DNA of 20,000 nt from an uncultured virus (IMG/VR IMGVR_UViG_2838736955_000001) (IMGVR_UViG_2838736955_000001); one strand, 5' to 3'. Shown: positions 2,811-19,806, counted from the first letter of the stretch. Translations and numbers: made by a program. The notes: generated by a model from the sequence alone, not told the origin.

Positions 2811-2953
2811 TAATTTTTAGTAACTTTACTGCTCGATAGCGACAACCGTCGCACTCCAAAACCGTTTTCTTTCAATGGCTTACTTGACCATTCCGACCAC
2901 GATGCGCATATATAGCGCATACCCCAATAGCGGGGAAATTGTGGGGAAGATTA

Positions 2954-4177
2954 ATGGGGAGCCATACTCGTAACGTTCTTACTGTGAAGTCTATCGCTGC
3001 TAGTAAGGCCACCAAGCTGCGCGATGGCGGCGGCCTGTATCTCGTCGCCAAGGGTAACGGTCGCTATTGGATGTTCAACTACACCTTTGCCGGCCTGCGG
3101 CGCGAGATGGGTATTGGTCCGCTCCACACAATCGGCCTCGCTGAAGCACGTGAGAAATGCGAGGACGCGCGGAAACTGATTCGCACGGGCGTTGACCCAC
3201 TGGCGGCCAAACGCGAGGCAGAGGAGGCCTCACCCAGCGCGATGACGTTCGGAGCCTATGCCGACGACTTCATCGATGCGGCCGTAAAGGCTGGCCGCTG
3301 GCGCGGAGGTAAGACGGAAGCACGCTGGCGTAATCTACTCGGCAATCACGCAAAGGATATCCGCTCTAAGGCTATCGGCGGCATCCGCGTGGCGGACGTA
3401 GTGAAGGTCATCAAGCCGCTATGGGGCGAAAAACAGGAAACCGCGGAGAAGCTGCGCGAGGCGATTGAGCGTGTTCTTGACGCGGCCAAGGTCGAGGGGC
3501 ATCGCTCCGGTGATAATCCGGCAGCCTGGAAAGGCAACCTCGAACATGTCCTCCACAAGCCTAACGAGCTTGTCGCACGCAACCATCACGCGGCCATGCC
3601 TCACGCCGACGTGCCCGCCTTCATGAAGAAGCTGGCCAAGGTAAGCGGCGTCAGCGCTCGCGCGCTGGAATTGACGATACTCACCGGCGTTCGCAGCGGC
3701 GAAACGCGAGGCGCGGTCTGGCCGGAATTCGATCTTGATGCGAAGGTTTGGACTATTCCAGCAATCCGCATGAAGGGCGGCAAGATACACCGCGTGCCGC
3801 TGTCGGACGAGGCAACTGCGCTCCTGAAAAAGATGGAGGAACAGTCGGTCAACGACTACGTCTTCCCTGGTGTCCGGCACAAGAAGCCTCTGTCGGATGC
3901 CTCACTGGCGAAGGCGCTGGACACTGCGGGCGGCGGAGTGTTCACGGTCCATGGCTTCAGGTCGACTTTCCGCGACTGGGCAACCGAGGTAGCACATGCA
4001 CCGCGAGAGATTGCCGAGGCCGCCCTCGCTCATGCTGTTGGCGATAAGGTCGAGCAGTCCTACGCAAGGTCGGATGCGCTGGAGCGTCGCCGTCAGTTAA
4101 TGCAGCAATGGGCAAACCACTGCATGACCGAGCCGGCAGCCATTGATGGTGAACCGCTCCACAGAAATGCGGCGTGA
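2954..4177 (+). CDS. int: P4-type tyrosine integrase with N-terminal arm-binding domain
   Basis: LRDGGGLYL...W...Y...REMGIG...LAEARE arm domain; catalytic R (GVRSGE), K (RMKGG), HGFR, LAH and Y (SYARSD). Confidence 0.95.
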   Translation: MGSHTRNVLTVKSIAASKATKLRDGGGLYLVAKGNGRYWMFNYTFAGLRREMGIGPLHTIGLAEAREKCEDARKLIRTGVDPLAAKREAEEASPSAMTFGAYADDFIDAAVKAGRWRGGKTEARWRNLLGNHAKDIRSKAIGGIRVADVVKVIKPLWGEKQETAEKLREAIERVLDAAKVEGHRSGDNPAAWKGNLEHVLHKPNELVARNHHAAMPHADVPAFMKKLAKVSGVSARALELTILTGVRSGETRGAVWPEFDLDAKVWTIPAIRMKGGKIHRVPLSDEATALLKKMEEQSVNDYVFPGVRHKKPLSDASLAKALDTAGGGVFTVHGFRSTFRDWATEVAHAPREIAEAALAHAVGDKVEQSYARSDALERRRQLMQQWANHCMTEPAAIDGEPLHRNAA

Positions 4178-4338
4178 CTTTTACGACCATATCGCCTATA
4201 TATTGATTGTCGCTGAGCGACCTGCAACCGGCGGGAACCCCGCCATGATCTGCTAGGCAGATCCAACCTCTAATCCGGCAATGCCGGCCTTCACCTTTTT
4301 ACGTGATTGATCTGGCCGAGTGCCGGAAGAGGAGAACT

Positions 4339-4545
4339 ATGACACCTTCAAATGACAATACCCCTGCCCTCGTCAGCTTGAACGAGGCTTGCCGCCTTAC
4401 GTCCATGTCCCGCACCATGCTGAACCGCTACCGCGCCGAAGGGCGGTTTCCTGTGGCGCTCGAATTGGGCGAGCGCCGAATTGCGTTCGTTCGGTCCGAG
4501 GTCGCCGCTTGGATTCAGGCGAAGATCGACGCGCGCGCCGCCTGA
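4339..4545 (+). CDS. alpA: AlpA family regulator/excisionase
   Basis: LVSLNEACRLTSMSRTMLNRYRAEGRFP...LGERRIAFVRSEV..WI; GAGGAG RBS before ATG 4339. Confidence 0.92.
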   Translation: MTPSNDNTPALVSLNEACRLTSMSRTMLNRYRAEGRFPVALELGERRIAFVRSEVAAWIQAKIDARAA

Positions 4546-4619
4546 TCAACATCACCAACCAGTGACACAACCACCTGCCGGCCCTCGCCGGCGGGCTATC
4601 TCATCGTGGAAGGAGACCA

Positions 4620-4886
4620 ATGCAGATCACCGACTTCAAAACTATAGACGAACCGAGCGGCGGCCATAGAGCCATTGCGGTCTTTGACCTCGAGCTTACC
4701 GATGAATGCCGCCTCTACGGCTTGCGGCTTCTCCGAATGCGCGACGGTCGCTTGCTGACATTTGCGCCGCAGTCTGGATATCGCCGTGTCGCGAGCTTCG
4801 CGACGCCACTGGCTGAACGCATCACCCGACTTGCTCTTGACCAATATGAGGCACTGACCGCCTATGACCGCATCCGCGCAGCCTAA
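4620..4886 (+). CDS. SpoVG-like nucleic-acid-binding protein
   Basis: MQITD...RAIA-x-F-x-L...L-x-GLRL...DG-x-L...P plus a C-terminal helix resembles SpoVG; AAGGAG RBS. Confidence 0.55.
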   Translation: MQITDFKTIDEPSGGHRAIAVFDLELTDECRLYGLRLLRMRDGRLLTFAPQSGYRRVASFATPLAERITRLALDQYEALTAYDRIRAA

Positions 4887-6444
4887 GCCAGATCCCCGCG
4901 AAGAAGCTTGGACAATCCATCGCGAACTCTGCCACATGCTCTCCGGCGACTCGGTACTCATCCCCTTCGCTGACGGCGAACCAGATTGGAGTACAACCAA
5001 CCGGGACACAGTCGAAAAAGTCAATGATTGGGCCGACTTCGAAGAAACAGACATTCCCCGCCTAGCGATCCTGACTGATGGCTTCCAGCGATTTATTGGC
5101 AAGGGCGAGGACGTTTCCGTCGTAACGCTCTGGCGGGCTGGCACGCCTATCATTCAGCAGATTGGTGGTGAGCCCTGCATCAGGGCCGTCGACGCCATCA
5201 TGGATGCCGTCATCGATGACATTCCTTTAGCTGATGTACTGCCCACTGCAGACCCACGTCATGAGATGCCCGACCTCACGCCGATGGAGCGAAAATTGTC
5301 CGAAATCGGCGATCGGCTTGCGAAACCGCCGACCGCCGCGAACGACAACAACCCCCAAAAGCAAGAGCCTGCGGTCCGCGAGATCGGTGTTGTTAATCCG
5401 GTGCACTGGCACGGCGAGGAGGTCCCAGAGCGCGAATGGTATGCAACTGACCTCATCCCGATGCGACAGGTCACGATTATCTCTGGCGATGGTGGCGTCG
5501 GCAAATCACTCCTCGCGCTACAAATTGGTGCCGCGGGTTGCATGGGATCTGAAACGCTCGGTATGACCTTTCTTGGCGGTCGGACGCTGTATCTCGGCGC
5601 TGAGGATGAAGCTGAAGAATTCCACCGGCGACTTCTCGATATCGTCAGCGCGCACGGAAAGACTCTCGCCGACCTTGAGGACTTCCGGCTCGTGCCTTTG
5701 GCCGGGATGGATGCCCTACTAGCCATTCCAGACAACAAAGGGGTGATGCAACCGACCCCGCTTTGGAAGTCGGTCGAAGAATATGCCGAAGGTTTCAAGC
5801 CTAAGCTAGTCGTGCTCGACACCGTGGCCGACCTCTTCGGCGGCGATGAGATCAAGCGCGGCCAGGCGCGCCAGTTCATCTCGATGCTTCGGCATCTAGC
5901 CATCAAGATCGACTGCGCCGTTGTCCTTCTTGCTCACCCATCTGTGCAAGGTATGCAGACTGGCACCGGATCCTCAGGCTCGACCGGATGGAGCAACAGT
6001 TCGCGTAGTCGCCTCTACATGACGAGGCCTGACGATAAGGGAGCTGACGCGGACCTGCGCGTGCTGAGGACGATGAAAATCAACTACGGCAAGGTCGGCG
6101 GCGAGATCACCATCCGATGGAAAGATGGATCATTCGAGCTCGACGACGGCAAGCCGGCCGCCGGATCTATGATGCTGGCGGCACGCGCCGAGGCCATCTT
6201 CCGTGACCTTCTATCAATGTTCAATCGGCAGGGTCGCAGCGTATGTCACGTACCAGGGACAACGTATGCTCCGGCTATGATGGCGAAGATGCCTGAAGCT
6301 GAGGGCGTCCCGAAGGCTAGGTTCGTCGACGCGATGAATGCCTTGCTGCGGTCAGGTGATATAAAGATCGTGGTGGAAGGCCCACCATCGAGGCCTCGGC
6401 AGCGGCTGATTTTGGCGTCGGAAGACTTCGGCGGAGGCAATTAA
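4864..6444 (+). CDS. AAA_25 / RSF1010 RepA-like replicative helicase with uncharacterised N-terminal domain
   Basis: Walker A GDGGVGKS, AEDE, Walker B LVVLD, LLAHPS, SGSTGW...R and K-x-NYG motifs. Confidence 0.9.
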   Translation: MTASAQPKPDPREEAWTIHRELCHMLSGDSVLIPFADGEPDWSTTNRDTVEKVNDWADFEETDIPRLAILTDGFQRFIGKGEDVSVVTLWRAGTPIIQQIGGEPCIRAVDAIMDAVIDDIPLADVLPTADPRHEMPDLTPMERKLSEIGDRLAKPPTAANDNNPQKQEPAVREIGVVNPVHWHGEEVPEREWYATDLIPMRQVTIISGDGGVGKSLLALQIGAAGCMGSETLGMTFLGGRTLYLGAEDEAEEFHRRLLDIVSAHGKTLADLEDFRLVPLAGMDALLAIPDNKGVMQPTPLWKSVEEYAEGFKPKLVVLDTVADLFGGDEIKRGQARQFISMLRHLAIKIDCAVVLLAHPSVQGMQTGTGSSGSTGWSNSSRSRLYMTRPDDKGADADLRVLRTMKINYGKVGGEITIRWKDGSFELDDGKPAAGSMMLAARAEAIFRDLLSMFNRQGRSVCHVPGTTYAPAMMAKMPEAEGVPKARFVDAMNALLRSGDIKIVVEGPPSRPRQRLILASEDFGGGN

Positions 6445-6450
6445 AGGCGG

Positions 6451-6583
6451 TTCCACCAACCGTTCCACCTCGCTTCCACCAGTGTTCCACCACCTTCCAC
6501 CAACCGTTCCACCCCTCCCCCTTATACCCCCACAGGGGTGGAACCACCCCGGTGCCGGTGGAAGCCGGCACGGCGCTTCCACG
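6451..6583. repeat. TTCCACC iteron array, putative replication origin
   Basis: TTCCACC at 6451, 6463, 6474, 6485, 6495 and 6507; inverted GGTGGAA at 6537 and 6557; TTCCACG at 6577; directly after the helicase stop. Confidence 0.75.
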
Positions 6584-6600
6584 CCCCTGTATGATGTTGT

Positions 6601-7406
6601 TCAGCCAATGAGCCAGATGATCGGCTTCACGAAAATCGCGCTGAGCTGCAACCCGGTACCCCACACGATTGCGAGTAAGCCACGTCTAGCCGCCTTCGAC
6701 GAGTTCAGAAGATTACGAACTGCCGGAAGCTTCAAATTTTCTTCTTTGGTTGCTGCCGCATAGCGGGCAACGCCTATGGTGATTGCATCGTTATCGGTAA
6801 GAATGACAGCCTTGGCTGTTATTCCGGCCCCTATCGCAGTGAGGAGCAAACCGATTGACACGAAAACATCAGATGCCACGGCTAGCCAAGTAGCGCCGCC
6901 TGCGTTCAAGATACTGCTCACAATTGCTCCTCGATTGACGATAGCGTCTGCGCCGCCCAACGTGCAGAATGCAGAAGCGAACCCCGTTGTTATGGCGGCC
7001 CAGTGGGTGACATTCAGGCCGGTAGTGTGCGGGCTTTTACCAATCCAGACCTGAGGGTCCCAAAGCATAGCAACATTGGCATTGTGATCGTAGTTATTGC
7101 TGTGCATTGACCAGTTCACCCAAGTGATGAACCCAGTCAGCATGGCCAAAAGTAGCCAGCGACAAACCACCACACTGCAGCCGCGTACCCATTGAGCAGC
7201 TCAGGTTTGTCAGCTACGTCTCCTAAGAACGTAAAGAGGCCGAATAGCGCGCTTCCATGCATAAGAAACAGACTGGCCAGAAGCCAACGACCATACTCTG
7301 CGGAGAGTGTGAACGTTACCCTCTGGCTCTCTTTTAGATCGTGATAGACGGCCGCAGCGCTTTGCTGCCTATCCATCATCCACTTCTTATCTGTCGAATC
7401 GGTCAT
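6601..7406 (-). pseudogene. Multi-pass membrane protein split by a 1-bp frameshift near 7155 (or sequencing error)
   Basis: ORF 7406-7137 ends WWFVAG|YFWPC; one extra C (GGC CTA) joins it to LLLAMLTGFITWVNWS of ORF 7173-6601, giving a continuous TM helix. Confidence 0.6.
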
Positions 7407-8259
7407 GCCCCACCTGTACTAACCCAGATGGAGAATACTGTGTGTCAATCAGATACGACTAGGAGGGGGCGATCATTTCTCCACAGACGAATCTTCGCCT
7501 ACCGGCGGTGTCCAAAACAACGAGTGCTAATACAGTTTTTTCCCTCCCGCGTGCGCAAGCGCGCGAGAAATCATTGAGGTTTTTGGCCTCAAAGTGGAAA
7601 AATTCGCGCTTAGTGCCGCAATCAATGATATTTCTACCGCTTAGTTGGCAGAAACAGCAATGGCCATGGTGTGTACATATGAAGGGTCCACTTACTGCAT
7701 CAGCCGTGGTGTGGATCTATGAGGGGACGAACGTAATAGTTGCTAATCCGCCACACCTAGCTTGCTCCCGTATTCCGGGGAGCTAGTTTGTTTGGCCGAA
7801 AGGTGTGCAAAACGCGAAGTTGTCACCTGTATATGTGAAGGGCGCGAAAAATCGTGCCACGCTACAGCGTATCTTTATGGATGAGTACGAACTCAAACGG
7901 CCTGCTGAGCGGTAATAATGGGGTACGCTGAAAAATCAGCATACCCATGTGCCTTTTCGTGCCGCGTTCTTGCGTACTCCTATGGAGAGATCTGCGCGCC
8001 GTCGCACCACGCGCACTCAGGTCACCAATGGGTGAGAGCCCATTTCAGTTTTCCCATTCGGCACGCCCATGCCGAAGCCGTCCACCTTGCCCTCACAGGG
8101 TGAAAGCGTTGCGCCTACCATCGTAGCGCCCGACGGCAACCTTTTCGTTGACGGCGGATGTAACCGCAGCGACTAGATCCCTTGTCTGCCGACAAGGTCG
8201 ATCGACCCTGCCGCCGACACGGCGCGCGGCGGGGTTCCGTTTCCAGTGGGTGGTTGAAA

Positions 8260-8288
8260 GGGCGTCGGCGAAAGCCGGCGTCTTTTTT
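8260..8288 (+). terminator. Rho-independent terminator upstream of the late operon
   Basis: GGGCGTCGGC-GAAA-GCCGGCGTCT followed by a T-run. Confidence 0.75.
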
Positions 8289-8330
8289 ATTGCCCTGTCA
8301 TTCAACATTCCAAAAAGTATGGAGAACCCA

Positions 8331-8642
8331 ATGCCGCTATCTGGCGTGCATATCGTTGCCGGCTATCCTGGCTCCAGTCAGCCCGATAAGCAGCAACCCA
8401 TCCTCGGCAAAATAGCCTGGTCGGAATCGCCGGCTACCGGCGTAGCGACGACCAATACCGCACCGGCTGTCGGTGACGCCCTCGGCCAGCCTATATTCCG
8501 GCTGCGCTCTTCCGCCGATGCCTACTTTGCGATCGGCAAGACACCGAATCCGTCGATGAGCCCGCGCGTTTTCGTGCCAGCGAACACCGACGTCGACATC
8601 TACGTCGACACTGGCGACAAGGCCGCATGGGTGGCTGCATGA
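8331..8642 (+). CDS. Small beta-rich phage protein (possible head decoration/structural protein)
   Basis: GGAGA RBS; FRLRSSADAYFAIGKTPNP...FVPAN...V..GDKAAWVAA resembles small phage virion proteins; ATGA-coupled to the next gene. Confidence 0.55.
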   Translation: MPLSGVHIVAGYPGSSQPDKQQPILGKIAWSESPATGVATTNTAPAVGDALGQPIFRLRSSADAYFAIGKTPNPSMSPRVFVPANTDVDIYVDTGDKAAWVAA

Positions 8643-9163
8643 AGACCGTAACCCTCGCCGACGCCATTGCCGCTCTCGAGCGCCGCATTGGCTTCCGCCG
8701 CGGCCGTCTAGTTGCGGTTTCGCAGCGCCTGCAACAGGCCAGCCTCATTCCGACCGGCGCACCGCGCACGGCTCCGCAGCTGAACCTTGCGGACGTTGTC
8801 GCGCTTGTGGTCGCCTATGCGGCCGACGCTCCCCTCCACCTGTCTGCAAGGTCGGTCGAGACGTACATCGGCCTGACCCCAGACGGGGCTGACGTGACCG
8901 GAGCACCCGCTGGCTACTGCAAAACCGCCGGCGACGAGCTGCTGGCTATCGCCGAGATGTACGACGATGCCGACCTTCGCAGGCTCCGCTTCGAATTCGT
9001 TTCAAGCTGGCCGGAAGTTGCAATCCACTTCGACGGCGGCGGTATCCACCGCTTCCTCAAACTTGGCGCTCTGCCCGGCCACTGGCAGTACTCCGGGCAT
9101 CGAAAATCCATCGTCATCAACGGCGCAGCTATGGCCGACGTCATCAAGGATCTATTCGCATGA
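8639..9163 (+). CDS. Hypothetical protein (possible N-terminal DNA-binding domain)
   Basis: ATGA overlaps with both neighbours; basic helical N-terminus. Confidence 0.7.
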   Translation: MKTVTLADAIAALERRIGFRRGRLVAVSQRLQQASLIPTGAPRTAPQLNLADVVALVVAYAADAPLHLSARSVETYIGLTPDGADVTGAPAGYCKTAGDELLAIAEMYDDADLRRLRFEFVSSWPEVAIHFDGGGIHRFLKLGALPGHWQYSGHRKSIVINGAAMADVIKDLFA

Positions 9164-9723
9164 AATTCAATAAATCCACCCCATTCCGCGTGCCGACCCT
9201 AGCCGAAGCAGACGCCGATTACGCGGCCATGGAAGCCAAACTCGCCGAGCTTGCAACCGAGGCCAGCCGCACAAACGCTGAGATCGATGAGCTCGCAGCC
9301 GATATTATCGCTCGCCCTGCCCCAAGGATACAGGCAGGCGTTGCCGCTCTTCTCGGCGAGACCGTCGACCAGACCCTTGCTAGCCGACCAGCAAAGCTCG
9401 CTGAACTGCGCAAGCATGCCGCTGACGTAGATGCCGCTATCGAGATCATACGACGCCGTATGCGTGACCGCCAAGCACAGGCGAGCGTAGCAGCATGTGC
9501 TGTCGTCCGTGCCGAATACGGAAAGCGGATCTCGGCTTTGGTCGAAGCGCTCGACGCGGTTCACGCCGCCCGCCTCCATGCCGATGCCCTGCTCGACGGT
9601 CTGGAGAACGAGGGCGTGCAAATCACATACTTACCTGCCGTCCGCGCAAACTTCCTCGGCGAGCGGAACGACGGACACATCCACCGCTTCAGGCGAGAAG
9701 CCGCGGAGGCTGGTTATGTCTGA
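9160..9723 (+). CDS. Alpha-helical coiled-coil hypothetical protein
   Basis: Ala/Glu/Arg/Leu-rich heptad-like helices; ATGA-coupled to the upstream gene. Confidence 0.75.
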   Translation: MKFNKSTPFRVPTLAEADADYAAMEAKLAELATEASRTNAEIDELAADIIARPAPRIQAGVAALLGETVDQTLASRPAKLAELRKHAADVDAAIEIIRRRMRDRQAQASVAACAVVRAEYGKRISALVEALDAVHAARLHADALLDGLENEGVQITYLPAVRANFLGERNDGHIHRFRREAAEAGYV

Positions 9724-9895
9724 ACGCCGCGAGTATGACATCCGTCCAGCCGACAACGGCCGCCCCGCCCTCCGATCCGTGAAACTACCGGGCGAACAGC
9801 GCCACACAGGGCGCTCTGAGAGCGCGAAAGCAATCGCGCGGCGCCTTGCCATCTCCAAGCGTGAGAAGGCTTTAGCGGAGCGCGCGAGTGGCTGA
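9716..9895 (+). CDS. Small basic hypothetical protein (59 aa)
   Basis: GGAGG RBS before ATG 9716; overlaps both neighbours by 8 nt. Confidence 0.55.
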   Translation: MSERREYDIRPADNGRPALRSVKLPGEQRHTGRSESAKAIARRLAISKREKALAERASG

Positions 9896-10382
9896 TGTAA
9901 GCGGGTATGCGGTGCAATGGGGGCGGCCGGCAGTCATTGCCGGACTTTTCGAAGAGCGCTTCGCCCGCGGCGCGTTTGATCGGAGCCTAGTTGATCATCC
10001 CGACGTTGCAGTTCTTTGGGGGCACGACAGCACCAAACCTCTAGCGAGGGTCTCGAATGGCAGCCTAAAACTCCGGTCTGACAATATTGGCCTTTTCTAC
10101 ACCTTCGCACCCGACGAGAAGTCGCCTATGGGCCAAGAGGCGTTGGCGAGCGTGCGGTCTGGCCTCGTCAATGAAGTGTCAGTCGGCTTTTCCTCGATCG
10201 AGGAGGAATGGGACGACAGCGGTAAGCTCCCAAAGCGGCTGATCACTCGCGCTTTTTTGGCGGAGGTCAGCATCGTTCTCTGGGGCGCTTACGGGAAATC
10301 GACGAGCGCCGAGGTTGTCGACCGGCGATCCGCCGCCGCCCAGCGCGCACAAGCGAAGATGAAATCGCGTGGCATCACCTGA
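9888..10382 (+). CDS. HK97-family prohead protease (peptidase S78)
   Basis: SGYA...FEERFARGAF...LWGHD (His)...LAR...L-x-L-x-x-D-x-x-GL...SVGF (Ser)...L-x-EVSIV...AY. Confidence 0.92.
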   Translation: MADVSGYAVQWGRPAVIAGLFEERFARGAFDRSLVDHPDVAVLWGHDSTKPLARVSNGSLKLRSDNIGLFYTFAPDEKSPMGQEALASVRSGLVNEVSVGFSSIEEEWDDSGKLPKRLITRAFLAEVSIVLWGAYGKSTSAEVVDRRSAAAQRAQAKMKSRGIT

Positions 10383-10620
10383 CATCGAATCCATCCGCGC
10401 ACTTTACCAAACCAACACCTGGCGCAGGCTCCGACGCCGGCACATCGAGGCACATCCGCTTTGTCAGGTCTGCATTGAAGATGAGATCGTCGAGGTTGCC
10501 ACTGCCGTAAGCCACCTCTCTCGGCACGACGGCGATCCGGCATTGTTCTTCGACGCGGATCAGCTGGTCAGCCTATGCCGTCCTCACCAAGAGTCGGCGC
10601 GGGCGGCGAAGGGCCTCTAG
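10369..10620 (+). CDS. HK97 gp74-like HNH endonuclease, degenerate active site
   Basis: LY-x-T-x-x-WRRLR...HPLCQVC...AT-x-VSH...H-x-GD...LFFD..QL-x-SLC-x-x-H. Confidence 0.85.
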   Translation: MASPDIESIRALYQTNTWRRLRRRHIEAHPLCQVCIEDEIVEVATAVSHLSRHDGDPALFFDADQLVSLCRPHQESARAAKGL

Positions 10621-10707
10621 GGGCGGTCAGAGGTCGGGCCGAGTGCCGGCTCGACTACCGCTCGGCCTCATTCGCGTACATTCCCACAATTCAAATGTTG
10701 ACCCCTA
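10619..10707. other. Candidate cos/packaging region
   Basis: Non-coding gap after a gp74-like HNH, the position of cos in HK97-like phages; bracketed by GGGCGGTCA (10621-10629) and TTGACCCC (10698-10705). Confidence 0.4.
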
Positions 10708-10725
10708 ATGGGTCTAGGAGGCCCT

Positions 10726-12672
10726 ATGGCCACTGATAACACCGATGACCTGATCATCAGTATCTCCACCGACCAGGCCACTTTGCGCCGGTCGATTCAG
10801 CGCATTGAGAGAGATCTCGGCGGCCTCGCAGGCAGCGTAAAAAAGCAGTTCGATAACGTCGGAAAGACAGTCGACAACTCCCTAACCAGCTCTCTGCAGA
10901 ACCGCATCAACGCTATGACGGGCGTCGCTACCAAGGCGGCGAAAGAGTGGACAGGTGCGCTCGCTGATCAAGGCGCCGAGCTCGAACGGTTGCGTGCTCG
11001 CTACTCACCGCTGTTCAATACCATAAACGGTTACAAATCGGCAGTTGCAGATATCCGTCGTGCCCATGCGCTCGGTGCCATCTCATCTAACGAGATGGCC
11101 GCGGCCATCAGCCGGGAACGACAGGCCGCGTTGGCGGCAACTGCAGCGATCAAAGGCAGAAACAGGGCACTTGTTGAGACGCCCGCGACGCCTTCGGTTC
11201 GTGGCGCCGGCTCTGGGTCGTTCCAGACCGGCAATATCGCCGCACAGTTTCAGGATATCGGCGTTACCGCGTTCGGCGGCATGAACCCGATGACCATCGC
11301 GCTGCAACAGGGCACTCAGCTTTCTGCCGTCCTGTCGCAGATGCGAGGCGAAGGGCAGTCTTCCGGTCGAGCACTCGCGGGGGCATTCGCCTCGATTGTT
11401 AGCCCGCTGTCTCTCGTCACCATCGGCCTTGTTGCCGGCTCAGCTGCTTTGATCCAGTATTTCACCTCCGGTGATGACCAGGCCGAAAAACTGAAGGTTC
11501 AACTCGAAGCGCAAGTAACGCTCATCGAAACCGTCGCTCAGCGATGGGGTGACGCCTATCCAGCCTTGAAAGCTTACTCCGATGAGCTTGTACGGGCACG
11601 GGACGCCGGGCAGCTACAGGACGCGCAGTCTGCTGCGACGACTCGCCTTTACCAGGATCAGGCCGCGGCGCTCGATCAACTCGTGAAGATTTCCCCAGAG
11701 GTCTCGCGCGCTCTCCGAGACGCGACATCGCCGGAGGCGGCCACATCGGCCATTGCTTATGAGCAGGCTATCGCAGACATGCGGAAGTCGCTGGAAGACG
11801 GCAAGGATCCTTCGGACGCATTCGGCCGAGCGACGCAAGCCTTGGCGACAATCATCGAAGCCACCGGTAGCAAGGCACTTAAAGGTTACGGCGACCAGTT
11901 CGATATCCTCGCCGGCAAAATTGAGACCGCCACAGGCAAGGCGGCCGCATTTCGAATGGAGCTTCCACCGCTCGGCACTCTTGGCGAAACGTGGTCCGAA
12001 GGCGGAAAGTTATACACCAGCGAGCAGTTCCAGCCGGTCAACCCAGGCGTCCCGACTCGTCGGCCGCTCGTCGAGCTGGAAGGCCTGCCAGGTGCTGCCG
12101 GTGCCGATAAAAAGTCCGAGACTGCAGCCCAGCGTGCCGCCAATGCATACCGCGACCTGATCAAGTCCGCGGACGACCGTATCGCCCAGATGCAGCTCGA
12201 GGCTGCCCTTCTAGGCAAATTCGGGAATGAAGCTGATGCGGCCCGTTTTAAACTCGACCTGTTGCAGCAGGCCGAGGACAAGGGACGTTCCCTAAATGAC
12301 GCACAGCGCGCCGAGGTCGAAAAGAAGGTTGAGATTTACGGCCGATATGCCGACCAGCTTGCGAAAGCCAAACTGCAACAGGATCTCCTGGAACAGCGAC
12401 GCTTTAGTTCGATGTCGTCGACCGACCAGCAGGTGGTGACGACACTCAAACAGTATGGTCTTTCCACCGACCTCAACAGCCCCGAAGCAGGCCAGATCCG
12501 CAAGTCACTTCGGGATGAATCCTTCCGTGACGATATCAAATCGTTCGCCTCGGACTTCTCGAACGGCGTTCTTCAGAACGGGGGCGGCATTGGCAAGGCG
12601 CTTGCCGACAGCATTCAACGGCCGATCCTGGGGCCGCAAGTCAATTTCACAATGAAGTGGAGCCGCGCATGA
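10726..12672 (+). CDS. Phage tail tape-measure protein (lambda-type N-terminal motif), short, 648 aa
   Basis: GNIAAQFQDIGVT...GMNPMTIALQQGTQL motif, hydrophobic segment SPLSLVTIGLVAG and long Ala-rich helices; AGGAGG RBS. Confidence 0.9.
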   Translation: MATDNTDDLIISISTDQATLRRSIQRIERDLGGLAGSVKKQFDNVGKTVDNSLTSSLQNRINAMTGVATKAAKEWTGALADQGAELERLRARYSPLFNTINGYKSAVADIRRAHALGAISSNEMAAAISRERQAALAATAAIKGRNRALVETPATPSVRGAGSGSFQTGNIAAQFQDIGVTAFGGMNPMTIALQQGTQLSAVLSQMRGEGQSSGRALAGAFASIVSPLSLVTIGLVAGSAALIQYFTSGDDQAEKLKVQLEAQVTLIETVAQRWGDAYPALKAYSDELVRARDAGQLQDAQSAATTRLYQDQAAALDQLVKISPEVSRALRDATSPEAATSAIAYEQAIADMRKSLEDGKDPSDAFGRATQALATIIEATGSKALKGYGDQFDILAGKIETATGKAAAFRMELPPLGTLGETWSEGGKLYTSEQFQPVNPGVPTRRPLVELEGLPGAAGADKKSETAAQRAANAYRDLIKSADDRIAQMQLEAALLGKFGNEADAARFKLDLLQQAEDKGRSLNDAQRAEVEKKVEIYGRYADQLAKAKLQQDLLEQRRFSSMSSTDQQVVTTLKQYGLSTDLNSPEAGQIRKSLRDESFRDDIKSFASDFSNGVLQNGGGIGKALADSIQRPILGPQVNFTMKWSRA

Positions 12673-13448
12673 GCGCATTCGTCTATCTGACCGCACCTGA
12701 CCAATCGGCGGCTTACCTCTTTGCAGACGGCGCCGGCTACGACACCAACGGCGTCGTCGGAAACTTTACGCAAAAGATTGCCTGCGGCCAGGTCGCCCCG
12801 ATTGCCATCACGGCGGTCGGTCACCAGGTACTGGGCGACAAGATGAAAGACTTTCTGATCAAGCAGGCCGACCGCTGGGGAATCGACGAGTTCGTCGACA
12901 ACTTCTTGCCTGCCTTCCTTCGGGAGACGGCGCTTGTGTATGCCGAGCACCAGCAGCACGAGGTGCAGAACGTCGCGATTTTGATCTCGGCGTGGAGTGA
13001 AACCAAGGGCGGCTTCCGCCTTGGCTTCCAGACGATGGACGAACTGCGCGATGACGTTACCGTCAGAGCATTCGAACCAAACATCGATCGTGAGTGCACC
13101 ATGCGCGGAGCGAAGATGGAAGTGATGGATCTAGTCACCATCGCTCGACCTCTCGTACCAGGCGAAACCGTGGAAAGCTACGCACGGTACTTCGGCAAGG
13201 CTGTTCTTTCACGCATGCGTGAGATCCCCGGCCTCCCGATGTACCTGAAGGACACTGATGCGAAGCCTCGCTACCAGATCGGCGGGCACATCGACATGGC
13301 GACGGTCGACAAGGACGGCGCGCGGATCGAGCGCATTCATGTCTGGGATGACAAGGTCGGCCAGATGATCGACCCGTCAGTCGACCACAAGACGGTCGTG
13401 CCGCTCATGAACCGCAAGGCTCGTCGGGCGCTGCGAGGTGCGGCGTGA
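12669..13448 (+). CDS. Proteasome-beta/HslV-like Ntn-hydrolase fold protein (Ser1 type)
   Basis: After Met removal: S1, D19 (FADG), K35, G50, ILISAWS strand and QIGGHIDMATV C-terminal motif; ATGA-coupled to the TMP gene. Confidence 0.6.
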   Translation: MSAFVYLTAPDQSAAYLFADGAGYDTNGVVGNFTQKIACGQVAPIAITAVGHQVLGDKMKDFLIKQADRWGIDEFVDNFLPAFLRETALVYAEHQQHEVQNVAILISAWSETKGGFRLGFQTMDELRDDVTVRAFEPNIDRECTMRGAKMEVMDLVTIARPLVPGETVESYARYFGKAVLSRMREIPGLPMYLKDTDAKPRYQIGGHIDMATVDKDGARIERIHVWDDKVGQMIDPSVDHKTVVPLMNRKARRALRGAA

Positions 13449-13654
13449 GCATCCATCATCGCATGATGCTGCAACGGTATGGCCTCGGCCATACCAGCAG
13501 CCTCTACAGCCAAGTCGTATTCGATCCGATTTTCACACCGTTGTTCACGGCCATCATCGGAAACGTCACGATCGGCGCTACCGGCATCACCGTCGCGTCT
13601 GTTGCTTCGGCGATCACCGTGACAGCCCTTACCGGAGGAATCATCGTCCGATGA
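13445..13654 (+). CDS. 69-aa peptide resembling only the N-terminus of a rhizobial phage tail-tip protein
   Basis: MSIHHRMMLQRYGLG...FDPIFTPLFTAIIG...IGATGITVASVASAI; GTGA/ATGA-coupled on both sides; family resemblance recalled, not searched. Confidence 0.55.
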   Translation: MSIHHRMMLQRYGLGHTSSLYSQVVFDPIFTPLFTAIIGNVTIGATGITVASVASAITVTALTGGIIVR

Positions 13655-14184
13655 CGGCCATCAACGTTATCCTTACCCCGGAATACGCCGTCATTGTCAG
13701 CGACACCTTGGCGCGCGCAGCAGGTAATCCTGACTTTCACGTCGCCAAGGTAATGCCTTGCCCGCATATGCGGCTGGCGGTTGCCACACGCGGCAGGATG
13801 GATGCCATCTCGAAAGTAGTCGGCGCGATCTCCGTCGGCGCATTCGACTACGATAGCTGCCGGGCCTTCCTAGCTGGCACGTATCCCCAGCTAGGCCTGG
13901 ACGAGGTGGAAATCGTCGTTGCAGGTTGGTCCGCAAAAGGTCCGGCGGCCTTCATCATTTCGGCCGCGAACACCGGCGGCAAGGTCATGGACATTCAGCA
14001 CGTCCTGATCACGCCAACCGTTCCCAAGGAAGTCGCCGACGCCTTCTCCGCTGATCCAATCGTACTGATGCCCGATCTCCTCAAAAGTCAGGCGAATTCA
14101 CCCGACGTCGGCGGCTTCATGAACGTCACCCAGATCGGCGAGCACGTCATAGAGACCTACACCGCCGGCCCCATCAGCGCCTAA
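13651..14184 (+). CDS. Proteasome-beta/HslV-like Ntn-hydrolase (Thr1 type)
   Basis: Likely start ATG 13651 (GGAGGA RBS). After Met removal: T1, D17 (VSDT), K32, G47, EIVVAGWS and DVGGFMNVTQI. Confidence 0.72.
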   Translation: MTAINVILTPEYAVIVSDTLARAAGNPDFHVAKVMPCPHMRLAVATRGRMDAISKVVGAISVGAFDYDSCRAFLAGTYPQLGLDEVEIVVAGWSAKGPAAFIISAANTGGKVMDIQHVLITPTVPKEVADAFSADPIVLMPDLLKSQANSPDVGGFMNVTQIGEHVIETYTAGPISA

Positions 14185-14253
14185 GCGCTCACCCCAACTC
14201 ATCCAATCATTCGCACTGGCCGCGCGCCGGAGCGCTTCCGTATGGGAGATTTC

Positions 14254-16689
14254 ATGCCAGAATTGGCAAATACGATTTGGGCCGATGGCCCATCCAGCAT
14301 GCCCACGCAGCCCCAGAAGTCGCAGATCCGCAGCTGGGGTACGTGGATCGAGCAGATCATCGCTGCATTCACGTCGAATGGCGGCCTGATCTACTCTTCG
14401 CTGGCGCTCCTCAATGCAGATCTTTCCAAGCCGGCCAACTCTATGGCTTGGGTTTTCGGCGACTCCGTCGCCGCAAATAACGGAGTCTATGGCAAGGTCG
14501 GCGCTTCGGGCTCTGGTTCGTGGACGCGTCGATCTGACCTACCGTTCAGCTTTATCGTAGCCTCTGACGTTGGAGCAGGAACGCCTAACGCAATCATGGC
14601 GACGACGGCCATCCCGGTTTCGCAGTCTGCGCTCGTGTGGCTGCAGGTTGCACAGACCAATACAGGATCCCCGGTTGTAGTTAGCTTCAACGGCGGTGGG
14701 CCGCTCGTGTTGAAAACCAACACCGGCAACGATCCTGCGACGGGCGGAATAGTCGCAGGCATGGTCGTGCTTGGCATCGTCTCCGGGGCAACGTTTAGGC
14801 TAGTGAGCGATCAAGCCTCTAGTGCGATCGTCGCCGCTGCGGAGGCAGCTGCTGCGGAGGCTCAGGCGGCTGCCGCCAGCGTCAACATCAAAAACGTTGC
14901 GACGCGGGCTCAGGTCAGAGCTCTCAACGCTTCGGTCTCGACGCTGGCTTTTCACAACGAGGGCGGGCGAAAAGGCCAGTTTCGTTGGACGGTTGGTGAT
15001 TTCACCGCCCGCGTCGCATCGGACACCGAAGGCGCCGTATATCTCGAGGCTGACGACGTTTCAGCCAGCGCCGGGTCGTGGGTTCGTGATTTCGACGGTG
15101 GCGTCGATATCCGTTGGTTTGGTGGAGTAGCTGACAATGGAGCTACCGACAATGCTGCATCATTCGTTGCGGCCGCGGCGATAGGCACGCAGATCTACAT
15201 CCCCGAAGGCATCTTCAGAGTTAACGCCACCGCGGCAAATTTCGATACGATCATGACGCTCGCTGGCAGATGCTATGGACCCGGTGTGATCGAGGTTTTA
15301 TGTGGCACAGGCTTCTACCCAGCGACCAACTACTATGGCTTCGTGAGCGCGTTGCCGCTCAACCTGAACCTTCGCGGTGAGAACGGTAGCGGCACCTTGA
15401 CAGCCGCAAGCATCACCTTTGCGGGCACGGCTGGAAACCACACAGCAGCGATCACATTTCCATCGCTACCGGTCGGGATCGCTGTTGGGCAGTTGCTCTC
15501 GCTTGTCCCCACGACCGTCGTCGACAAGCGAACCAGCCAATGCCTCCTCGCAGGCGCGAACAAGATCACAAGCATTGTAGGCAATGTTGTCACGGTCTCA
15601 ATCTCCTACCACGGGACGATCACCGCGAAGATGCCGACTATTGTCGGATCGGTGAGTTTCACGGGCTCTTGGCGGCTGAATAAGTCGATCATCACCTACG
15701 CAGGTTCGCGTACCCCGATCTACGTGCAAAACCAGTTTGCTCGCATCAACATCACCGACGTTGGACTGACCGGGCCTTATACCAGCGGCGCGTTCGTCAA
15801 CACGTCTGGCATAACCGTTGGCTGGATCGACGAGGACCGACACTATGTGAAAGATCAGTTACGTCTCTCCGGCGTCAGCATAAACGGGTTTGCCTCTGGC
15901 GTTCTTGGGCAGGGTGCGCGTACATTCCTGGGGGACCTTCGTGGCTCGAACTGCCTGTCTCTCCTGGCCGGGCGACGCCAATCGCAATTCTACGCGACCG
16001 CGATCTTTGTCGGGGCCTGCGGCGGGGATGCTGTTTCACTCACTGACAATTCGGAGATTTTTGTTTCGGCGGAGGTCATGTCTTGCGGCAATAGCGGGCG
16101 TGGTGTCTGGGCATTCGGCGGTGACTTCAACTGCCCGGGTGTTGTTCATGTCGGATATAATCTCGGTGCTGGAGGCTATGCAAAAGCTGGAGCCAACTTC
16201 ATCGCCGGTGCAACGTCGTGTGCTTTTCGAAACAACGACATCGGCTGGGGAAATGAAAACGGTAAGATGCATGTCGATGACACGGTTTCAGAGTACAATC
16301 TGAAGACCGGTTTCGAGTGCGGAATGGGGCATACCAGCGCCCAGAGAATTGTCTCCCGATACAATGAGAATGGCCTCTATTCTCTGGTGGGCGGCACGAT
16401 CTTCGCAGACGATTGCGATGTCTACGGCAACTCACAAAGCGGTGCTGCCAGTGCCGAGCTGAGTATGGTCCGCGCCTATCGCGGTAAGTTCCATGACAAC
16501 ACTCTCGATGGCGTTTCCATCATTGGGAACTCCCACTTCCGCGGTGACTCCGTGCAGATCAACAACAATGGCAGATACGGCGTCAACGGGATGCTGAACA
16601 GCACCTCTAGAACGCCCGGCGTGACCGGGTCGGGTAACGCCTCCGGTAACACGTTCTTCGACCCCACCAGCAGCGGAACGGTTTGGTAA
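14254..16689 (+). CDS. Tail fibre/tailspike with right-handed beta-helix (putative polysaccharide depolymerase)
   Basis: N-terminal anchor and AAAEAAAAEAQAAAA linker; VDIRWFGGVADNGATDNAA...IYIPEG pectate-lyase-3-like start; C-terminal N-x-x-x-G beta-helix repeats. Confidence 0.85.
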   Translation: MPELANTIWADGPSSMPTQPQKSQIRSWGTWIEQIIAAFTSNGGLIYSSLALLNADLSKPANSMAWVFGDSVAANNGVYGKVGASGSGSWTRRSDLPFSFIVASDVGAGTPNAIMATTAIPVSQSALVWLQVAQTNTGSPVVVSFNGGGPLVLKTNTGNDPATGGIVAGMVVLGIVSGATFRLVSDQASSAIVAAAEAAAAEAQAAAASVNIKNVATRAQVRALNASVSTLAFHNEGGRKGQFRWTVGDFTARVASDTEGAVYLEADDVSASAGSWVRDFDGGVDIRWFGGVADNGATDNAASFVAAAAIGTQIYIPEGIFRVNATAANFDTIMTLAGRCYGPGVIEVLCGTGFYPATNYYGFVSALPLNLNLRGENGSGTLTAASITFAGTAGNHTAAITFPSLPVGIAVGQLLSLVPTTVVDKRTSQCLLAGANKITSIVGNVVTVSISYHGTITAKMPTIVGSVSFTGSWRLNKSIITYAGSRTPIYVQNQFARINITDVGLTGPYTSGAFVNTSGITVGWIDEDRHYVKDQLRLSGVSINGFASGVLGQGARTFLGDLRGSNCLSLLAGRRQSQFYATAIFVGACGGDAVSLTDNSEIFVSAEVMSCGNSGRGVWAFGGDFNCPGVVHVGYNLGAGGYAKAGANFIAGATSCAFRNNDIGWGNENGKMHVDDTVSEYNLKTGFECGMGHTSAQRIVSRYNENGLYSLVGGTIFADDCDVYGNSQSGAASAELSMVRAYRGKFHDNTLDGVSIIGNSHFRGDSVQINNNGRYGVNGMLNSTSRTPGVTGSGNASGNTFFDPTSSGTVW

Positions 16690-16705
16690 AAGGAAGGATC
16701 AGACT

Positions 16706-16909
16706 ATGCAAATCGGCGACAAAGTTATGTGCGGATCGATCACCCCGAGCCCTAGTTCGGGGAATCTAACGCTTGGTGCTGAGTACGAAGTTTCTGGCGT
16801 CACGCCCTCCCGTGATGGCGAGAAGATCTCACTGGTCGATATCGACGGGCTTTTCGAAGCGCTGGATTTTCGGCAAGTCACAACGGTTGAGGCTGCATCA
16901 GTGCTCTGA
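16706..16909 (+). CDS. Small hypothetical protein (SH3-like beta pattern)
   Basis: AAGGAAGG RBS; MQIGDKV-x-C...LT-x-G-x-EYEV pattern. Confidence 0.65.
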   Translation: MQIGDKVMCGSITPSPSSGNLTLGAEYEVSGVTPSRDGEKISLVDIDGLFEALDFRQVTTVEAASVL

Positions 16910-16924
16910 TCAATAATACATCGA

Positions 16925-16956
16925 GGGCGCCGGCCGAAGCCGACGCCCATTTTTTT
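16925..16956 (+). terminator. Terminator closing the late operon (possibly bidirectional)
   Basis: GGGCGCCGGC-CGAA-GCCGACGCCC then A and T7; forms a C(UUCG)G hairpin on the minus strand. Confidence 0.7.
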
Positions 16957-17143
16957 GGAGGGGCTCTTTGGAAACAACTACAATTTGGCACGGTCCATCT
17001 GCATTAGTCGGCGCCCTCGCCGCTCTGTGCTGGACGGGTTCGATGAATTGGATGTGGTTGCCGTTTGTGATCTTGATCTTGGTTGCCGATAGAATCAGAC
17101 TGCGACTGCGCTGACATCGAAAGTTCAATGATTCGGGGGAAAT

Positions 17144-17959
17144 ATGCGGGGCTTAGTTGTAACACCAAGTGTGCAAATCGGTCCTGGTACTCAGTTCGCT
17201 ATGGGTCGACACGACGATCAGTTACTTCGCATGTGGCTTCTTTATTGGGATAAACTCGCGAACCCCACGCAATCAAACTTTGTCGTCGGGCTTCCGAGGG
17301 AATACGAATTTCTTGAAACGGCGGGAATATTCTCCAACCACTTCGTCGATCATTTCGGAGGAACTGGTCCGGACGTATTCAGAGAAACTAGCTTGGAGCT
17401 TTTTGATAGGCTTGAAGAGCACGATATATCGCCTTGGGCGGTGTACGGAATATTAGATCCCGAAGATAAGATGGACGTGAAGGACGGACGAATTCTGCGT
17501 GTCGCACTAATGTCCGCGTTGCCCATTCCAAACCAAGACGTTCCGCTCGATGACATACTTACCTTTCGCGATAGACGCTCTGCAGAACGTGAAGCCCTCA
17601 TGGCTCATATCGACGATGTCTATCAGTCTGTCGTGAATGCCCCTGATCGTCCACTGGCAGAGCACACGGCGTTAAAGCGCTTAGCCTCCGGTGCAAAGGA
17701 TCAGGTGGACGCAATTCATGAATCCAGGATTCCGTTTCGCCTTATGGATTTAGCTTCTGACTTCAATCTCGTTGCCGGCGTTGCTGCAGCGGCTGGATCG
17801 TTAGCAATCGGAGCGACGTGGCCAGTTGCGCTGGGCAATAGTCTTGTGGCCGGCGGAAGCATCACAATCGGAAAGATTGCGGGCATCGGGCAGAAGAAGA
17901 AAAACGATACCCCATTTCGATATGTGGGGCTCTATCATGACGAGGTCTTTAAACCATAA
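17144..17959 (+). CDS. DUF6236-like protein (accessory cargo)
   Basis: MRGLVV-x-P...LLYWDKL-x-x-P...L-x-x-ALPIP-x-x-DVPLDDIL-x-FR-x-RR-x-x-E...PF-x-Y pattern; visibly more AT-rich than the flanks. Confidence 0.7.
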   Translation: MRGLVVTPSVQIGPGTQFAMGRHDDQLLRMWLLYWDKLANPTQSNFVVGLPREYEFLETAGIFSNHFVDHFGGTGPDVFRETSLELFDRLEEHDISPWAVYGILDPEDKMDVKDGRILRVALMSALPIPNQDVPLDDILTFRDRRSAEREALMAHIDDVYQSVVNAPDRPLAEHTALKRLASGAKDQVDAIHESRIPFRLMDLASDFNLVAGVAAAAGSLAIGATWPVALGNSLVAGGSITIGKIAGIGQKKKNDTPFRYVGLYHDEVFKP

Positions 17960-17978
17960 GGTGAAGAGGCCTGCGCGC

Positions 17979-18533
17979 TTAATCTGGCGAAAGCGCCCGC
18001 CATTTCTTGATGCGGGCGGCCTCTGCAACGCCTTCCTCGGTTAGTGAATATCGGAAGGCATTCTTTTCTGTGCCGACCAATCTGGCGGCACCGGCGGCGA
18101 TGAGCTCGTCGAGAAGCACCTGCCCTGCCCCTGGTATCGAGGCAGCTGTGTCGCACTCTGGATGTGTCGCCATGAAAATCAGCGCGGTTTCGATCTTGCC
18201 GCTCAAGCCCAGCTGCGGCTTGTATTTTGCTCTGCGTTTTTCCTTGTCGGCACGCCAGACGGCGATGTCGGTGCCGTGCGCAGAAGACGACCGACTACGT
18301 TTTCCGCCGCCATTTTCGCGCATCCACTTCTCGTAGGGATCGTCTTTTTCGGCGGTGGCAAGCCCGCTGATTTCGTCAAGCTTGGCGTCAATGGCGCGCC
18401 TATCCCACTTGCGAGTTCCAGCGATGGCAGGCGGCATCTTATGCGTCGCCACCCACATGGAAAACGGGGATTCGGCGATGCCGAGGTAAGCAGCAGCTTC
18501 CTTGCGACCAATTAGGCGGGGGCCGTCAGTCAT
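17979..18533 (-). CDS. Excisionase-like HTH fused to a C-terminal winged-helix-like domain
   Basis: PRLIGRKEAAAYLGI...P...RKWDRRAIDAKLD...DPYEKW; C-terminal KPQLGL...YSLTEEG. Confidence 0.75.
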   Translation of the reverse strand: MTDGPRLIGRKEAAAYLGIAESPFSMWVATHKMPPAIAGTRKWDRRAIDAKLDEISGLATAEKDDPYEKWMRENGGGKRSRSSSAHGTDIAVWRADKEKRRAKYKPQLGLSGKIETALIFMATHPECDTAASIPGAGQVLLDELIAAGAARLVGTEKNAFRYSLTEEGVAEAARIKKWRALSPD

Positions 18534-19066
18534 GGCCGAGACTTTCCGCCATAATACTCCGCCAGACGTCTTGCCTCATCTTTGCCGGCCTCTGTAACCA
18601 CCCAGGTCGGATCGCCGTCCTGGTCTTTCTTGCCAGGCCTCAGGGCGCCCTTCTCAACCAGCACATTCATTGTGTGAGTACTGGCATTGGGAACAGCTAG
18701 GTGCGACCGCACGTCGGGATGCTCTGCCATAAACACCAGCGCGTTCTGGCTACGGGTATCGAGGCCGAGTTGCGGCTTCTTTTTCGCGCTACGCCGTTTG
18801 GTGTTATCCCACGCGCTCCAGTCCTCCTTGCCGTCGGGTCCGCCAATCGCGGTCCCCGATCCGATCCCCCAATATTGGGAGTAGAACCTTGCTACCAGAG
18901 GCACTGGGCGGCCATCGTGAAGCGGATCGCGAAGAGGAAATCCCTGCCGCTCTAGCATCGGGATGACAGCCTTCGTGTAATAGGACGCCCTCTCTTTCCC
19001 AACCACGGCAATGGCTATTTCGCGGTCGGTGGCGAAGAGCGGGAGGTTAGCCAGGGCGTCGTTCAT
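18530..19066 (-). CDS. Excisionase-like protein (second family) fused to a paralogous winged-helix-like domain
   Basis: LPLFATDREIAIAVVG...LERQGFP-x-x-DPLHDGR...PDGKEDW; C-terminal KPQLGL...WVVTEAG; coupled to both neighbours. Confidence 0.65.
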   Translation of the reverse strand: MNDALANLPLFATDREIAIAVVGKERASYYTKAVIPMLERQGFPLRDPLHDGRPVPLVARFYSQYWGIGSGTAIGGPDGKEDWSAWDNTKRRSAKKKPQLGLDTRSQNALVFMAEHPDVRSHLAVPNASTHTMNVLVEKGALRPGKKDQDGDPTWVVTEAGKDEARRLAEYYGGKSRP

Positions 19067-19326
19067 GGATGCCGATCGCGAAGGCGGACGCCGGGGCCGC
19101 CTGTCGACGAGTATTCCCCATCGAAGAACTCCGCACCCGCAAGCGCTAGCGCATCGACTATCTTCTGGATCGTATCAGGTCTTCCGCCCAGATCACCATC
19201 ACCGGCCTCAAGCCGCTTGATCGTCGGTTCCGAAATATCTGATGCTTTTGCTAGGTCGGCCTGTGACCAGCCAAGGAGCGCGCGCGCCGCCTTCACCTGA
19301 CGAATTGATACTTTTAGTATTGACAC
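19063..19326 (-). CDS. XRE-family HTH transcriptional regulator
   Basis: QVKAARALLGWSQADLAKASDISEPTIKRLE...AG-x-EF...GPGVRLR; GTG start at 19326 after GGAG. Confidence 0.92.
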   Translation of the reverse strand: MSILKVSIRQVKAARALLGWSQADLAKASDISEPTIKRLEAGDGDLGGRPDTIQKIVDALALAGAEFFDGEYSSTGGPGVRLRDRHP

Positions 19327-19362
19327 ATAATCGCTCCGTGATATTGATACTATTAGTATCAA
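19305..19362. promoter_or_regulatory. Two palindromic operators in a divergent control region
   Basis: TTGATACT-ATT-AGTATCAA (19344-19362, perfect) and TTGATACT-TTT-AGTATTGA (19305-19323, inside the first codons of the XRE gene). Confidence 0.75.
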
Positions 19363-19395
19363 ACCTATCGGACACATGCAACGGAGCGCTCCGAA

Positions 19396-19806
19396 ATGAA
19401 GCGAGACATGGTTACCAACGGGCTAACGGCAGAGGCTATAGCAGCAGTCGCGGTAAGCGCCATGCACCAGTGGCAGCATGCGGATCAGAATCATCGCGAC
19501 ACTGAAAGAGAGATTTCCGCTGAACGAATTTCCCAGCTCGAAACGGAGGCGTCATATTACACCTCCACCACACCCGAAGCAGCACTCTATCAGTTGGGTG
19601 TAGCGCGCTCGCATGCGGACACTCTCGTCGCAAACTACGTCGACGACCTTGAAGGCGTGAACCTCTATCGCAACCTTGAACGCCTTCTCATCCAGATCAC
19701 TCGATACATCGAGGCCACAAGCGGCGTGACGCGTGAACACGCAGGCCTCCTCTATTACTCCGATCCACGGAACGACGGGCATGTGTTCGTGGAGGCCAGC
19801 CGATGA
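19396..19806 (+). CDS. Hypothetical helical protein
   Basis: GGAG RBS; divergent from the XRE gene; ATGA overlap with the next ORF. Confidence 0.7.
   Translation: MKRDMVTNGLTAEAIAAVAVSAMHQWQHADQNHRDTEREISAERISQLETEASYYTSTTPEAALYQLGVARSHADTLVANYVDDLEGVNLYRNLERLLIQITRYIEATSGVTREHAGLLYYSDPRNDGHVFVEASR

Follow-up and report, generated by a model that had tools for sequence, protein, structure and literature searches.

We analyzed a 20,000-nucleotide stretch of DNA from an uncultured virus (IMG/VR IMGVR_UViG_2838736955_000001; hereafter the window), which forms the end of a 77-kb provirus record and carries two genes for predicted N-terminal nucleophile (Ntn) peptidases, Ntn-A and Ntn-B, each placed directly behind a truncated phage tail gene. 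The four genes succeed one another with 4-base overlaps, the stop codon of the first overlapping the start of Ntn-A as ATGA and the third sharing 4 nt with each of the two Ntn genes:

10726..12672, plus strand: tape measure protein (TMP), N-terminal 648-aa fragment, 52% identical to the TMP of Rhizobium phage RHph_Y3_1
12669..13448, plus strand: Ntn-A, proteasome-beta-like, Ser1/Asp19/Lys35/Gly50 after Met removal
13445..13654, plus strand: 69-aa N-terminal, hydrophobic, plug-like piece of the central tail fibre J (BLASTP E 1e-9 to the phiLM21 gp61 N-terminus)
13651..14184, plus strand: Ntn-B, proteasome-beta-like, Thr1/Asp17/Lys32/Gly47 after Met removal

Ntn-A (259 aa) begins M-SAFVY, with S2/D20/K36/G51 corresponding to mature S1/D19/K35/G50, and Ntn-B (177 aa) begins M-TAINV, with T2/D18/K33/G48 corresponding to mature T1/D17/K32/G47. 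The original prediction, which had read these genes as a pair of proteasome-beta/HslV-like Ntn proteases, gave just these starts and residue positions, and the translations of both open reading frames (ORFs) agree with it; the ILISAWS/IVVAGWS strands and late GG motifs that it pointed out are likewise found in both proteins. The starts are downstream of the longer, unsupported ones in the ORF list: 132 of the 135 full-length family matches carry T/S at position 2, i.e., the family has its nucleophile directly after the start Met and no propeptide, and close homologs are equally short. Removal of the start Met would then expose Ser1/Thr1. A family profile search returned 561 clusters (50% identity) at E ≤ 0.001, and in a 140-row alignment D18, K33 and G48 are present in 140/140 rows and T/S at position 2 in 139/140, although these rows are the best matches of the profile search, so that the conservation is in part by construction. 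With this proviso the homologs retain the S/T1-D-K-G signature (139–140/140) on which the proposed enzyme class depended, and the Thr1/Ser1-Asp17-Lys33 triad and Gly47 align residue for residue with those of proteasome beta subunits (50/50 in a further count). A fold model of Ntn-B, with helices at 52-63 and 67-81 and helix H2 present, confirmed its predicted alpha-beta-beta-alpha proteasome-beta fold, and an Atlas model together with a profile match points to the same fold for Ntn-A; with the catalytic residues intact, the Ntn assignment is upheld. A pairwise BLAST comparison of Ntn-A and Ntn-B found no similarity; a deeper profile joined them at 99.2% probability with the four catalytic residues in register, and they are thus distant relatives within one unannotated proteasome-beta/Ntn family, whose members are about 175-270 aa long. 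Of the "paralog pair" first proposed only this remote relation stands, as the two belong to different clades and the near-identical island L005 has in slot A another family member, only 25% identical to Ntn-A, an exchangeability that argues against an obligate heteromer. Ntn-B itself has a ratio of nonsynonymous to synonymous divergence (dN/dS) of 0.11 against its L005 counterpart.

The arrangement recurs in related soil bacteria. The family was detected in 13/401, 19/301 and 7/201 sampled genomes (the samples overlap), and we fetched 45 loci (L003-L047), with genes called by script, most of which are small islands with an integrase and partial HK97-type head modules. We counted 46 enzyme genes for which both the start and upstream DNA were present, the window's two included (L019, L020, L038, L039, L046 and the second piece of L045 were dropped). 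Thirty of the 46 lie directly behind a TMP or J piece supported by a profile or by BLAST, and ten more do so on weaker evidence, so that the link between enzymes and tail proteins suggested from the window holds across the family. The upstream gene is a TMP for 21 of the 46 (18 by PHROG, 3 by BLAST) and a J piece for nine, namely those in the window, L005, L006 and L015 (the 69-aa family), L021, L024, L033 and L040 (phrog_31), and L008 (by its likeness to L021). Two further J pieces, in L012 and L029, are of moderate quality (9.9-10.0 bits, above all 20 shuffles), and eight assignments are weak or by eye (J in L010, L013, L023, L025 and L042; TMP in L027, L037 and L047). At 33 of the 46 genes the start overlaps the preceding stop in the ATGA manner, behind an upstream frame that is open for at least 30 codons. 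In all five loci with two enzymes (window, L005, L006, L010, L013) one enzyme accompanies a TMP and the other a J-like piece, the first three loci being mutually related and the J labels of L010 and L013 being by eye. On a 43-row tree the TMP and J labels, assigned when four cases later read as tail pieces still counted as "other", required seven changes each, compared with shuffled means of 14.5 and 11.9; at least 3-4 changes of partner label are forced by strong branches, which indicates that the pairing arose or switched repeatedly. The clade of Ntn-A has six members, all of them with a TMP, and that of Ntn-B is a J clade with three.

Most of the coupled TMPs are short at one end. That of the window matches residues 3-655 of the 1065-aa RHph_Y3_1 TMP; the match stops at its own residue 635, 13 unrelated residues follow before the end, and the 410 C-terminal residues of the phage protein have no counterpart. 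Among the 21 coupled TMPs, 15 proved to be truncated, five are without C-terminal motifs but have no direct alignment, and one (L043) is intact. For 13 of the 21 an alignment runs to within 45 residues of their end against a TMP that continues for 75-410 residues, and two others stop where one of those 13 stops. In contrast, all seven uncoupled TMPs (L011, L015, L025, L029, L042, L050, L055) keep a natural C-terminal domain, two of these coming from six islands of the window's class that are enzyme-less over the stretch fetched. Against L005, the window's TMP piece has a pN of 0.26 with pS saturated. As a separate observation, L011 (10367-11245) and L055 carry C-terminal TMP pieces on their own, in place of the N-terminal ones that are usual, and that of L011 lies directly 3' of an Ntn gene.

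What the 69-aa gene matches is the beginning of the phiLM21 fibre gp61 (737 aa), and it stops where gp61 goes on. A search restricted to 37-130 aa identified 40 short homologs, and 33 of the 38 that were aligned (60-112 aa) stop within 8 residues of one glycine, while their N-termini vary; the length limit accounts for the shortness of these pieces but not for their common end. Seven of these short homologs share the length of their longest contig with an enzyme match, a hint that the two may lie in one genome. When the J-piece profile was run over 401 genomes, its sole match was directly upstream of an Ntn gene. A profile built from seven by-eye J pieces ranked the phiLM21 J start first among 370 phage ORFs, with an E-value of 6e-5 without composition correction and 0.12 with it. 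The window's piece has a dN/dS of 0.26 against that of L005.

The surroundings of these genes differ from the phage tail operon in which the original prediction had embedded them. The first 57 kb of the record look, from a by-eye reading of ORF translations, like a separate podovirus-type prophage, and tblastn with TMP and J queries gave no match there. From 2939 onward the order is integrase, AlpA, AAA_25 protein, two conserved unknowns, prohead protease, HNH, TMP, Ntn-A, the 69-aa gene, Ntn-B and tail fibre; between 2939 and the record end we found no capsid, portal, terminase, tail tube, distal tail, hub or full-length J gene. Rather than an operon, then, the two enzymes sit among broken tail genes, a truncated TMP and a J fragment, in an island that is capsid-less and satellite-like. 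The element would be a phage satellite, with a host that we infer to belong to the Hyphomicrobiales. The record stops at 20000 without showing the right end of the island; L005, which has the same layout, adjoins a tRNA. The other genes recognized in the island are:

2939..4177, plus strand: tyrosine integrase, probable left end of the island (Pfam Arm-DNA-bind_3, Phage_int_M, Phage_integrase)
4303..4545, plus strand: AlpA-type regulator (PF05930)
4864..6444, plus strand: AAA_25 primase/helicase-like replication protein (PF13481 and PHROG primase/helicase matches)
8639..9163, plus strand: island marker protein c13, unknown function (cluster in 6 loci; dN/dS 0.19 against L005; 0 family matches)
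9160..9723, plus strand: island marker helical protein c14 (cluster in 6 loci; dN/dS 0.07)
9888..10382, plus strand: HK97-type prohead protease, without an adjoining capsid gene (PF04586, phrog_80)
10369..10620, plus strand: small HNH protein (phrog_2323)
14242..16689, plus strand: tail fibre/spike, 815-aa open frame (phrog_38233; phiLM21 gp62-like N-terminus, 60% identity over 254 residues)

The c13 and c14 genes (8639-9723) mark the capsid-less class of islands, c14 being present in 7/301 genomes. The prohead protease is under purifying selection (dN/dS 0.13), yet the island has no capsid or portal gene, and the same holds in L005, L007, L010 and L022; this protease may act on the proheads of a helper. 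A 23-bp near-perfect inverted repeat at 2743-2788, just 5' of the integrase, is likely a terminator at the left edge of the island. A 103-aa protein (8331-8642) has a 48%-identical homolog in the upstream prophage, at about 11045-11362 of the record. After the tail fibre there is low-GC cargo encoding a DUF6236 protein (17144-17959; no PADLOC match), and the minus strand at 17979-19066 carries two tandem excisionase-like genes (37% mutual similarity) and an Xre gene. Genes of these kinds stand before a second integrase in L005 and L007, and the island may be a composite that extends past the record end. In L005 an OLD/AriA-like ATPase defense gene (10783-12684, minus strand) sits where a tail fibre would follow Ntn-B, which suggests that this position is a variable cargo slot.

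On the basis of the fold, residues, truncation, coupling and recurrence described above, we tentatively favor, at a little short of an even call, the reading that a cassette of a tail piece and a peptidase disrupts the assembly of siphophage tail tips. The island would carry two copies of one such cassette, in each of which the N-terminal part of a protein that initiates siphophage tails (TMP, or J with its hydrophobic, plug-like start) precedes a propeptide-free Ntn peptidase and is coupled to it in translation. Loss of the start Met would free Ser1/Thr1, as judged from the proteins themselves and from Anbu (PMC6376114). The pieces, retaining surfaces that bind chaperones or the tip and lacking the parts that close it, might then be built into the initiator of the tail tip in a siphophage, whether helper or invader, or titrate it, and the coupled predicted peptidase might cleave TMP or J in those complexes, yielding tailless or faulty particles. 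Within the lambda tail tip, the C-terminal end of the TMP and the hydrophobic plug gpI are bound to one another, and an enzyme stated as unknown cleaves the TMP close to its C-terminal, glycine-rich region (PMC10721106, PMC12617516); the island retains the N-terminal parts of TMP and J, with a predicted peptidase gene behind each. Satellites that block tail assembly have precedents in Tai (PMC11364771) and Rta (PMC12987554). Processing of TMP, tail-tip or helper proteins, which the original prediction had raised, is plausible as a role for such predicted enzymes. A more specific version, which we regard as possible but doubtful, is a widespread satellite module whose tail fragment, ending at a fixed site, would serve a dedicated enzyme of proteasome fold as its bait or adaptor. 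This peptidase or transpeptidase would act while the tail tip is being assembled, cutting phage TMP and central fibre or joining them again. If so, the module would be an enzymatic hijack of tail assembly or an enzymatic defense, and a mobile proteasome homolog would have its first function.

Several observations weigh against interference by such a cassette. A tail piece is present only downstream of the enzyme gene in L003, L009 and L011 and is lacking in L004, L017 and L018; the L043 TMP is coupled to an Ntn gene with its C-terminus intact; M-T/M-S starts by themselves often yield ATGA; and the loci are partly non-independent (window/L005/L006; L003/L009). Four of the six Ntn-less islands of the same class have no TMP match over the stretch fetched, which would make the cassette accessory. 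The final codons of the window's J piece are read-through of the Ntn-B ribosome-binding site, so that the fixed end could be a Gly codon reused for that site, and the low dN/dS of the tail pieces may in part predate their truncation. What looks like a late-operon position fits induced interference with a helper better than standing defense. The proteasome auxiliary sites, Gly-Ser129-Gly and Asp166/Ser169, are also affected: both Gly-Ser-Gly and Ser169 are substituted in the family, the columns of the two sites reading, in sequence alignment only, x-T/S/A-Pro (Pro in 139/140) and Val/Ile-Gly-Gly. Finally, the triad is no guarantee of peptidase activity, given the precedent of Anbu. That protein has an identical triad, and peptidase activity was undetected in it (PMC6376114).

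An unlikely alternative is that the satellite builds a chimeric tail of its own, with the pieces standing in for the products of maturation cleavage (a TMP like gpH* and a plug like gpI) in satellite particles while the Ntn enzymes cut helper TMP/J or join pieces by transpeptidation in the manner of connectase, a proteasome-fold ligase (PMC7980362). The PLE satellites make chimeric tails with their own TMP, several of our TMP pieces stop inside a glycine-rich region, which is where lambda gpH is cleaved, and the window retains a tail fibre (PMC12987554, PMC12617516 for PLEs and gpH, respectively). Relatives also have neck, tube-like and chaperone genes, with distal tail and full J genes not recognized there. 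Somewhat less probable again, the Ntn genes could be accessory cargo with a target outside the tail, the tail relics being kept just because they provide a ribosome-binding site and coupled translation where the late operon ends. The junction tails do resemble untranslated leaders, slot A is swappable, L032 and L036 pair 90%-identical TMPs with very different Ntns, and one plasmid copy of the Ntn gene has no phage context. Coupling could, however, have been had from other genes, yet for 30-40 of the 46 enzymes the partner is a tail piece, with several families of TMP and two types of J represented; moreover, J-piece cassettes lie mid-operon in L025 and L029, the J pieces keep their end constant while the N-terminus varies, and the open frames of the pieces are long and conserved. 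The improbable last candidate is counter-defense, where the enzymes would free tail proteins of conjugates added by the host, ubiquitin-like or other, as the original prediction also entertained, or the hydrophobic pieces would decoy the sensors with which hosts detect tail proteins. Modification of the central fibre by host systems is known (cited in PMC11364771), and J-type pieces with a gpI-like domain adjoin some family members. But no conjugation genes were recognized in the window, and an element that makes no complete tail of its own has little to protect; in addition, the part of J that Tai-type systems modify or target is its C-terminal region (PMC11364771), which is missing here, and two queries against cultured phages returned no member of the family.

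The family shares its fold and triad with 20S beta, HslV, Anbu and BPH (PF00227), from which it differs by its low identity (9-18%) and mobile-element context; only 2 of 140 members reach E ≤ 0.1 against PF00227, and neither the window nor the relatives' gene maps contain HslU or alpha-subunit partner genes. Besides the replaced Gly-Ser-Gly and Ser169, it has no propeptide, unlike most HslV and 20S beta members. The 22 uncharacterized proteasome homologs (with PPH, AAH, RPC, DPH, PMI and FC4 among the groups) of Fuchs, Alva and Lupas 2021 (PMC8665760) are also divergent, propeptide-free and Thr1/Ser1-bearing; PPH and AAH are carried by phages, RPC and DPH come from proteobacteria, FC4 resembles phage tail proteins in its C-terminal domains, and genomic context gave that survey no pointer to function. 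PPH and RPC are without helix H2 and PPH is about 140 aa, whereas the Ntn-B model has H2 and our family is longer. The accessions that came back for 10 family proteins include no representative listed in PMC8665760, although the alignments deposited with it may already hold this family (DPH, AAH, PMI). Connectase provides a precedent for a proteasome-fold enzyme with a dedicated substrate and transpeptidation, but it lacks H1/H2 and has a two-helix insertion (PMC7980362), features that our family does not share.

Among mobile elements, the phage-inducible chromosomal islands (PICIs) and capsid-forming cf-PICIs share integrase, AlpA and primase-helicase with the island. The cf-PICIs have their own capsid, portal and terminase, whereas from 2939 to 20000 none of the three was found, the island having the prohead protease and HNH gene, plus tail pieces; relatives such as L025, L029, L035 and L036 do have HK97-type portal, protease, capsid and terminase genes. 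Tai, Tab, PLE11 Rta and the chimeric tails of PLEs (PICI-like elements) are satellite- or prophage-borne and target TMP and J (PMC11364771, PMC12987554), and a TMP of their own is encoded, as in the island, by PLEs and by some cf-PICIs (PMC12987554). The Tai paper mentions protease 0 times and Rta is an 80-aa protein, whereas the island has truncated tail proteins and a predicted peptidase. PADLOC returned no matches to known defense proteins, from a 2023 library that is older than Tai, Tab and Rta. Phage-borne proteasome homologs (PMC8665760) and satellite TMPs and tail-assembly inhibitors (PMC12987554, PMC11364771) are thus already published; our genes are real, new additions to a known fold family, and the cassette is a variation on satellite tail manipulation. 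We found no paper in which truncated tail proteins and a proteasome-like gene are coupled, judging from titles and abstract openings, with most subscription journals outside the coverage. What the family brings is a recurring clue, the coupling to two truncated proteins that meet in the siphophage tail tip, which names TMP and J as candidate substrates and allows simple assays. If the interference reading is true, the newly recognized interference of satellites with tail assembly would gain an enzymatic route; the reading would also bear on what catalyzes TMP cleavage, stated as unknown for lambda (PMC12617516).

Four other members of the family (P0088, P0097, P0110, P0151) have a C-terminal extension of ~150 aa that by eye resembles the end of a tail-tip protein, with no PHROG matches for any and no NCBIfam matches for the two tested, and the N-terminal part of P0094 matches the internal virion protein family phrog_342. 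In addition, 48 of the 140 family members match phrog_13702, a family labelled "terminase large subunit" to whose N-terminus Ntn-B also matches; phrog_13702 is probably an Ntn family under a mistaken label.

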